Source: Eledone cirrhosa (taxonomy: Eukaryota). From it: DNA of 64,000 nucleotides. The position numbers were made by a program, and so were the translations under genes. Shown in pieces: positions 57,111-59,421 of the stretch; position 1 is the first letter of the stretch; every line of letters starts with the position of its first letter. The notes under the pieces were generated by a model. The model had not been told where the DNA came from and made no database searches. It saw only the letters and a list, made by a program, of their open reading frames with translations. The stretch is taken from contig OZ024747.1 of assembly GCA_964016885.1 (NCBI GenBank), positions 63,116,001 through 63,180,000 on the forward strand, read 5' to 3'.

Positions 57111-58482
57111 AGACCAGGTTCAAGATATCATCGCTCTCAGACTGGGAACATTTTACATTGGAATTGTAAAAGTCACAATATGGTTCCCTGATCAGTTTAG
57201 TCTTGTACAATAATGATGATGATATATATGCGACAGGCTTTTGCACAGTTTCTGATTACAAAAGCATACCTGAATTTGCAGCTGCAGTATAAGATATTTG
57301 CCACAAGGGCCAAGCAATGGGGGATCAAACCTGAAACTATATAGCTTCAAAGTGAACATTTTAACCACACAACCATACCTTTGCCTAAATTATTAACAAA
57401 AAACCCAACTGAGATATCTAATATAAAAACTGAACTAAATGAAACATGACATAATATTTCAGTGAAACTAATATCTATGAAATGAATAATTAGATTGATA
57501 AAAAAGAACTCTAATCAACTGAAATGTCCCAAACTGAATCAGCCATGTTATCTGTAGTCAGGAATTTTAGTCTCTTGAGGATTATGTTAATGGATATTGA
57601 TATAAAAATGTCAGAAAAACTAATGAATTATTTAAAAACTGGATAGAGGACTAACTAATTTAGCTCTACTAATTTACTCAAGTTGTTACATGCTTCCAGT
57701 GTATATGAATATAAAGAGTAATTAGCTCGTTAACCTTAATTACTAATGCCAGGTTAAATTAGTAGCAATTGCGAGAGAGAGATTTATAAAATTATGATTG
57801 GTATCATTTATGCTTTGGTTCTTGTTTTGTTGTTGTTGTTTTTTTTTCCAACTTTTTTCAATTTCATTTCAAATTGAAAGTTTGTGAACTGGAATATATA
57901 TCTCTCTCTCTATAACTCTTACTTTGTATCTTTCTTTTTGTCTTTCTCTTTTTCTCTGCCTGTCTCCCCCCCCCTCTCTCGTACTCTCTCTCCCCCTTTC
58001 TCTTCATATCTCTCTCTCTCCTTCTCTCTCTCTTGCACATTGTTCTTTCTCTCCATCTTTCTCTCCTTATCTTTCTCTCCTCCCTTGCACATTGTTTTGC
58101 CTAATTCATCATTCATTTAACAAACACACACAGATACCGCACACGAAAATAATACACACGTGCATCACAAAGACACACACATGCACCACGAATATACATA
58201 CATAGCACAAAAAATACATCAGTACCACACCCACACACATACACACACACACACACACAAACCAACCAACCAACCAAGATGTCGTTTTTCTTGTTTTCAT
58301 TATCACGGTATTAAATATGCTGTCATATGTTTGTACGCAATAAAATATCTGATACAATCAAACAACAAACTTGTAAATTTATTCAAGCTATATAAACTGT
58401 AATATATTGTATAGACATACAATATTACACAATATTAATAGTTTAGTTAATATGAAGTAAAGTTAATATTTAGTTAATATGT

Positions 58483-58817
58483 GGAGGCACATGGCTTAGT
58501 GGTTAGAGCATTGGGCTTGCAATCGAAAGTTCAATTCTCAGACCGGTTGATGTGTTGTTTCCTTGAGCAAGACACTTTATTTCACATTGCTCCAGTTTAC
58601 TCAGCTGTAGAAATGAGATGAGAGGGACTGGGGTCCCTATCATTCCACTGCAAAGTGGTCATGGAGGTGCCACGGCAAAAAAGCACCCAGCACTCACTGT
58701 AAATGAGGTTGGTGTTAGGATGGGCATCCAGCTGTAGAAATCAAGCCAGAATCAGTTCCCGTCCCACCCTTGCAAGCAGGGATAAGTGGACGTAAAAATG
58801 AAATGAAAGGAAATGAT
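58483..58817 (+). mobile_element. SINE family 2, full length
   Basis: Near-identical to 15428-15772, with a small deletion before the B-box. Confidence 0.9.
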
Positions 58818-58949
58818 ACAAAGGTTATATTTAATTTGTTGGAATTCAACAAACTTAAAAGTTTTATAACTGATATAAAGCACTCAACAGATAGTGGAGT
58901 AAATATTAATTATATTAATAAATGGAAACTATATTTATAAAGCCATAAT

Positions 58950-59015
58950 TATTTTATTATATATATTTCAAGGGCAACCAAGGCAAATTTTGATGTGCTT
59001 TCATCAGATAAAATA
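58950..59015 (-). ncRNA. Type I minimal hammerhead ribozyme
   Basis: Minus strand: tattttat CTGATGA aagcacatcaaaatttgccttggttgccctt GAAA T-ATAT-A TA ataaaata. Confidence 0.72.
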
Positions 59016-59097
59016 CAAAATTTGTTTTATCCAGCGAACCTCCAACTGTCAAGGTTGTTCTTCTGCGGGTATGTCACCATTTATAAAACACATTTTG

Positions 59098-59163
59098 TAT
59101 TTTATCTGATGAAAGCGCACCAAAATTTGCCTTGGTTGCCTTTGAAATATATATAATAAAATA
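59098..59163 (+). ncRNA. Type I minimal hammerhead ribozyme
   Basis: tattttat CTGATGA(59106-12) aagcgcaccaa..ttggttgccttt GAAA(59144-47) T-ATAT-A TA ataaaata; predicted cut after 59155. Confidence 0.75.
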
Positions 59164-59200
59164 ATTATAGTTTTATGAATATAGTTTCCATTTATTAATA

Positions 59201-59383
59201 TAATTGTTTCTACTTTAGGCACAAGGCCAGCAATTACCCAGTACATTACTGGTACTTTATTTTATCGACCCCGTAAGGATGAAAGGTAAAGTTAACCTCG
59301 GCGGGATTTGAACTCAGACTGTAAAGGGACGTAACTATGCTAGAAAGCATGGCGTCCAACCCTCTACCGATACTGCCAATTCA
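59201..59383 (-). mobile_element. SINE family 1 (young copy)
   Basis: Reverse complement of 15865-16050. Confidence 0.9.
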
Positions 59384-59421
59384 CTTATTAATATAATGGA
59401 TATATATATATATATATATAT

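Follow-up and report, generated by a model that had tools for sequence, protein, structure and literature searches.

Two short fold-backs with a hammerhead motif in each arm lie near 36.7 kb and 58.9 kb of a 64,000-nucleotide stretch of Eledone cirrhosa DNA (contig OZ024747.1; "the window" below means this whole stretch), raising the question of what such a structure is and how it arose. A preliminary description had read the 58.9-kb locus as a second, diverged double hammerhead, with its core conserved and its stem II replaced. We propose instead that the fold-back was built from a Hydra-type Penelope-like element (PLE), two of whose 3' ends, both truncated, are joined head to head, likely a dead insertion from one reverse transcriptase (RT)-endonuclease event; taken as a whole, we hold this explanation to be highly probable.

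With a type I hammerhead descriptor, we obtained exactly four matches in the window, two per fold-back and on opposite strands. All four agree in stem I (TATTTTAT/ATAAAATA), CTGATGA, GAAAT and the AUA site, as had been described. Loop III reads ATAT at 58.9 kb vs GCGC at 36.7 kb, and stem II is unlike in sequence and in length, 31 nt at 58.9 kb vs 36 nt at 36.7 kb. The CUGANGA, GAAA and UH core is present together with helices I and II, as a hammerhead requires; positions such as C3, A17 and G10.1-C11.1 follow the usual hammerhead numbering. When the window was scanned with Rfam, hammerheads were absent at E≤1 and the only matches were microRNA noise from simple repeats, and none of the ORFs of at least 120 aa in the window was PLE-like. 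When folding was compared with shuffles, no advantage was observed for either 58.9-kb arm (z −0.96 and +1.06). In the window copy of the − arm, where one stem II pair is gone, the predicted centroid of the hammerhead is unfolded. For helix III at 58.9 kb, the predicted self-duplex is favourable (−3.2 kcal/mol) vs an unfavourable monomer hairpin (+4.7 kcal/mol).

As presented in Table 1, the arms at 58.9 kb are of unequal length. They share 94% identity over 123 nt (7/123 positions differ), and the 52-nt unpaired loop between them (59031-59082) is made of the element itself and belongs to the 5' portion of the + arm. The short arm ends 50 nt past its predicted cleavage site and the long arm stops 142 nt past its own. 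The 30 nearest genomic copies all stop at the point that corresponds to 58816, followed by (TA)n; we therefore place the true left end there, 62 nt further left than the preliminary description, which had given the extent as 58878..59205 and whose right end stands. Most of the copies inspected end in (TA)n, and the window copy retains only TAT. Across the genome, at least 1,057 candidate copies of the left arm were counted. Stem I seems to be extended past an internal loop by a second helix (59083-59097 with 59164-59182), family-specific in sequence. The flanks (58480-58815 and 59206-59385) are two other dispersed, SINE-like-looking repeats that recur beside many copies, and different Hydra families are often nested at one (TA)n spot.

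Table 1. Positions of the fold-backs in the window and of the parts of the 58.9-kb fold-back.
Feature	Position	Strand	Remark
Sister-family fold-back, GCGC loop	36623..37040	.	− arm long, + arm short
Hammerhead motifs, 36.7 kb	36937 (+) and 36818 (−)		type I hammerhead descriptor
Third fold-back, unrelated family, 4-bp stem III, 8-nt loop	40225-40432		+ arm long, − arm short
Long arm: 5'-truncated PLE 3' end (pLTR) up to distal fixed end	58816..59030	−	
Tail, ~92 nt	58816..58907	−	on long arm only
Hairpin 1 (ACUC / inner stem / 2-nt bulge / GAGU)	58882..58900	−	tail's first feature, just beyond short end
Type I hammerhead motif, long arm	58950..59015	−	one stem II pair missing in window copy
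− motif, 58.9 kb	C3 59007, A17 58958	−	
Head-to-head junction	59028..59030	.	TAT common to both arms
Short arm: 5'-truncated PLE 3' end up to proximal fixed end	59028..59205	+	
Type I hammerhead motif, short arm	59098..59163	+	predicted cleavage after A59155
+ motif, 58.9 kb	C3 59106, A17 59155	+	
Short-arm hammerhead parts	stem I 59098-59105/59156-59163; CUGAUGA 59106-59112; stem II 59113-59143; GAAA 59144-59147	+	
Self-complementary 8-mer (stem III + loop)	59147..59154	+	predicted intermolecular dimer helix

Could the fold-back itself function as a double hammerhead, used by the host or by the element? Two motifs lie 100 nt apart, an arrangement seen in several families. They stand on opposite strands, however, so a read-through transcript would pair one motif with its own antisense, giving a single long duplex (predicted at −168.9 kcal/mol), and for this reason it cannot form a double hammerhead. 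In addition, the junction and the spacing of the arms are inconsistent between copies, varying from 140 nt to more than 4 kb, and a break in stem II is among the positions at which the two arms differ. Two same-sense motifs in one RNA were found only in tandem full-length units. Dimerisation would be open only to tandem pLTRs or to two separate RNAs. We consider a functional double hammerhead at this locus extremely improbable, and the name is given up here.

The reading as joined truncated 3' ends requires a parent. The hammerhead-bearing end sits downstream of an ORF with an RT and, at its C terminus, a GIY-YIG-type domain: pLTR copies run seamlessly into a 1.3-kb 3' UTR and then into the PLE ORF. 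In tandem copies, this end is repeated about 190-230 nt upstream of the ATG, and at 20 loci chosen for long frames the hammerheads of the pLTR-ORF-pLTR units are 3.7-3.95 kb apart, a unit longer than the <3 kb that is typical, not defining, for Hydra (PMC8557442). Parent frames of 740-800 aa carry YRDD and a YxC..YxGST C-terminal domain, in agreement with the published Hydra alignment as compared by eye. The DKG motif is changed to DKT (SDKTNN in 4/4 aligned proteins), the CxCX5C linker is intact in L091, L165 and L235 and damaged in L159 and L164, CxLC..E..N..CxH is present in 4/4 proteins, CCHH is absent as judged by eye, and the N-terminal RWK position reads RWR or RWI. Pfam and PDB sequence searches with the parent protein gave no informative match, so the domain calls rest on motifs read by eye and on homologues, some of which carry PF00078 or PF26215; the nearest named homologue is from Argonauta. 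The published marks of the Hydra clade are DKT, CxCX5C, CxxC and CxH, (TA)n insertion and a length generally below 3 kb (PMC8557442), and the order of RT then GIY-YIG-type EN, DKT, CxCX5C and CxxC/CxH are shared with that clade as described there, including Hydra-1_Obim. Judged from these motifs and the published alignment by eye, the parents are Hydra-type Penelope-like elements. The 36.7-kb type is represented in full length at one locus, L235 (G000:C1:12248500-12253900), where the frame is uninterrupted over 798 aa from Met and the tandem pLTRs are separated by 3.7 kb.

A non-autonomous retrozyme or SINE that replicates via small hammerhead circles would fit the size of most copies (150-300 nt) and the position of their 5' ends, which in 40/93 scored copies (107 queried) cluster 60-99 nt upstream of the core, a clustering that is expected if the RNA often starts there. 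Against this, the copies are continuous with the 3' UTR and the PLE ORF, and among the loci examined short head-to-tail arrays were rare. Animal non-LTR retrozymes (PMC7229834; bioRxiv 10.64898/2026.07.22.740005) are alike in having a type I hammerhead with PLE ancestry, but they are described as non-autonomous tandem repeats, whereas here the truncated end of an ORF-bearing element is found head to head. This origin therefore appears improbable to us, and we retain the truncated ends of an ORF-bearing PLE.

We then consider the claim that keeping the core while the variable parts turn over reflects selection in the parent elements and not chance. Genome-wide, the shared hammerhead pattern has 21,312 exact matches, against 0 for the reversed control. 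The parents of the 36.7-kb and 58.9-kb types show 48.6% amino acid identity by tblastn (54% over aligned columns), and their four-fold sites are near-saturated, being identical at 36% vs a random expectation of 31% (n=107); yet core, stem I and stem III are identical between both types at 31/31 positions, these positions having been chosen post hoc. In a structural alignment of 20 representatives, drawn from 42 clusters of 255 copies, stem II has changes on both sides in 7/8 pairs while 96% of cells pair, and its covariation score was reached by 0/500 shuffles, a statistic that ignores kinship. The claim that stem II had changed and still paired holds across the representatives; in the − arm of the window, one pair is lost. 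No two-sided changes were observed in stem I of the 20 representatives. Apart from N7 the catalytic core is invariant across them, one decayed copy at U16.1 excepted, although the copies were selected on an exact core and so say nothing about core decay among copies.

The palindromy of loop III, also part of the preliminary description, was recovered: among the first 100 matches listed, with the loop left free, the 8-mer of stem III and loop is fully self-pairing (Watson-Crick or G-U) in 91. At the level of families, the loops are GCGC, ATAT and ATGT, the last being self-complementary via G-U pairs only and on the RNA strand only. ATGT occurs 7,457 times vs 51 times for its mismatched mirror ACAT, counts that mirror a few successful masters and not independent events. 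The familiar process of CpG decay was considered as the source of the loop change and rejected, since it should produce ACAT no less than ATGT. Of the 51 ACAT rows, about 14 (e.g. G000:C26:1277828) have one common stem II, pointing to a small non-self-complementary lineage that spread, which makes it a natural control for the dimer model. Taken together, these results support selection on a hammerhead-like RNA structure in the parent elements, with cleavage as a prediction from sequence.

These motifs resemble the minimal, type I hammerheads of PLEs (Cervera and de la Pena 2014, PMC4209133) in their core, short palindromic helix III and long helix II, and the setting is also similar, with many families per genome, compensatory changes and opposite-strand pairs 100-700 bp apart. 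PLE hammerheads with such a helix III are thought to act as dimers (PMC4209133; review PMC6765202). Unlike the hammerheads described in PMC4209133, the present ones have an 8-bp stem I, lack G10.1-C11.1, have a near-constant C.Y at the fourth position of stem II and, in about one third of copies, a loop that is self-complementary through G-U pairs only. At the first stem II pair, where G10.1-C11.1 would be canonical, the 20 representatives have A-U in 12, G-U in 5, G-C in 2 and no pair in 1; the C.Y mismatch may be a tertiary contact. The hammerhead of Hydra-1_Obim from Octopus bimaculoides has 3-4 bp stems with 1-3-nt loops (PMC8557442), vs a 2-bp stem III and a 4-nt palindromic loop here.

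Selection on the fold leaves room for a job other than catalysis, such as RNA dimerisation or protein binding that unites two templates, with cleavage slow or incidental. Every genomic end extends beyond an intact cleavage site, and the templates must therefore have been uncut or re-ligated. Such a job would also suit paired insertions, which require two cDNAs, the low in vitro activity reported for PLE hammerheads (PMC4209133), and the results reported for the anole element, in which catalytic mutants had no effect on insertion and RNA-seq ends at the site were absent (PMC11167929). It accords less well with a core that is invariant apart from N7 in all but one representative, or with Naiad PLEs, which insert inverted and are described as having no canonical hammerheads (PMC8557442). 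On balance, we regard a purely non-catalytic role as rather unlikely, and selection on a hammerhead-like structure predicted to cleave remains our reading.

The ends of the copies bear on how the fold-back was made. Genomic copies stop at two points, either ~50 or ~135-155 nt past the predicted cleavage site. An inverted piece was found within 350 nt upstream in 44/100 copies (22 with hammerhead) and was of the opposite length class in 43/44, pairs in which both arms matched being counted twice; in the other 56/100, no inverted piece was detectable within 350 nt. For the arm-class library, TA-run entries were dropped (151 reduced to 118); with them, 12 short-short pairs appeared, 11 of which came from one TA-run entry. 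A separate count made without merging overlapping loci gave 52 long-short pairs, duplicates included, and three long-long pairs that are tandem 5' pLTRs continuing into the ORF. In the third family (40.3 kb), with 783 candidates, hairpin 1 is present after the short end; neither the parent ORF nor any copy running into the leader was found among the loci examined. Another locus, L016, holds a further PLE fragment and, in the opposite orientation, a minimal hammerhead unlike those above (260-710 and 1330-1400). An inverted, 5'-truncated copy with a one-sided 30-40-bp tail has already been published for PLEs (PMC8557442); these two traits, together with (TA)n targets and a 3'-end hammerhead, are shared with the Hydra clade as described there. 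Unlike the published octopus Hydra family, the Eledone elements have units of 3.7-3.95 kb, a tail of ~90 nt (vs 30-40) and more than 21,000 matching ends. The rule of one long and one short arm was not found described in the literature searched.

Each of the two fixed ends adjoins, on its 3' side, a copy of one small bulged hairpin. Hairpin 1 has 119 copies among the loci examined, and its fold (z −3.0) was matched by 1/200 shuffles. Hairpin 2 lies just beyond the long end and occurs only in the leader before the ATG, being absent from inserted ends (19 leaders). With a strict descriptor, which was derived from these Eledone families, both hairpins were found in 5/8 leaders and one in the remaining 3/8; two hairpins arose in 0/1000 shuffles per leader. 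A held-out family, L267, with 38% protein identity and a different hammerhead, has both, at +57 and +157; within its positions 1-800, the 5' end of this more distant Hydra-type family, the hammerhead is its own and the two hairpins precede the ATG. Among published elements, we recognised the motif by eye in Hydra-2_Amil, Hydra-1_Ajap (twice, before the ATG) and Hydra-2_Ajap, and less exactly in Hydra-1_Crog, a set that spans coral, sea cucumber and copepod; it was not clearly seen by eye in Hydra-1_Obim or Hydra-1_Amil. The hairpin motif was not found described in the literature searched, whose scope ended short of subscription papers and of Figs S1 and S2 of PMC11167929.

Variation around the hairpins differs between families. 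The hairpin 1 loop (58887-58894) is hypervariable in the 58.9-kb family, with 20 loops in 29 copies and a variation of 0.33 vs 0.002-0.05 elsewhere (per-column variation among the 30 nearest copies, L001-L030), and only 3 sequences are found in 30 copies of the 36.7-kb family. In alignment A2, columns 91-99 pair with 187-195 in a 9-bp helix around the end of the tail and hairpin 2 of the leader; in the sister family this helix shows two-sided changes.

A hairpin at each fixed end is likely to position reverse transcription. Alternatively, the hairpins may act as DNA, in recognition or resolution by the endonuclease, or the long end may be inherited from read-through into (TA)n, with no RNA signal involved. 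For the Penelope endonuclease of Drosophila, a need for the tail in DNA is cited in PMC11167929, and covariation of the leader hairpins within the genome is weak (4 cells, 66/500 shuffles). The restriction of hairpin 2 to the leader, its absence from inserted ends, the G-U pairs present in the hairpin stems and the in vitro start of the anole element inside an RNA stem-loop (PMC11167929) argue the other way, and we find a DNA role or simple inheritance unlikely, if worth keeping in mind. Returning to positioning by RNA, a fuller model can be offered tentatively, at a probability we place a little short of even: a clade-wide RNA signal (RCUC-stem-NN-GAGY, twice in the leader) would set the start of a telomerase-like RT, and an RNP dimer, which the palindromic loop of the hammerhead may hold together, would prime one strand per hairpin, giving one long and one short end.

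The closest precedent for two starts is the Anolis Poseidon element PAc (Frangieh et al. 2024, PMC11167929), in which two fixed starts lie close to the junction of pLTR and ORF, downstream of the hammerhead, with the tail between these internal reverse-transcription starts; targets are AT-rich, and both target strands are extended. The starts of PAc fall within the ORF, in a single AC-rich stem-loop, whereas both are here in the 5' leader, ~90 nt apart, each with its own hairpin. The anole hammerhead needs protein to cleave, and hammerhead mutants had no effect on insertion in vitro (PMC11167929). By analogy with that element, the Eledone protein would cut both strands of a (TA)n target, and each target 3' end would prime cDNA at one of the two internal leader sites, the hairpins presumably positioning the two starts. 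Both cDNAs would stop early and join head to head, at a junction where TAT is common to both arms. In the parent RNA, the hammerhead would cleave only when two same-sense copies pair via the palindromic loop III, either tandem pLTRs 3.7-3.95 kb apart or two separate RNAs, and the protein would probably assist. On the fuller model, with hairpin 2 confined to the stretch that precedes the ATG, a full-length copy could arise only through a circle produced by the hammerhead or a jump of the strong-stop kind; if the RNA starts near the clustered 5' ends, such a copy would likewise require a tandem transcript, a circle or else a jump.

Overall, the fold-back is a further, very abundant case of known PLE anatomy, in its hammerheads, its palindromic loop III, its inverted arrangement and its tail on one side; new here, judged by the literature searched, are the twin hairpin, one copy per fixed end, and the one-long-one-short rule. 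With copies in the tens of thousands, spread over many families, the genome offers a natural experiment on hammerhead pairing and on the self-complementarity of loop III, G-U-only forms included, and the selection on pairing bears on the question of what the hammerheads of PLEs do. Exact positions for the choice of two RT starts are provided by the twin hairpin and the rule of one long and one short arm, which also bear on why insertions are inverted and why the tail is found on one side only.
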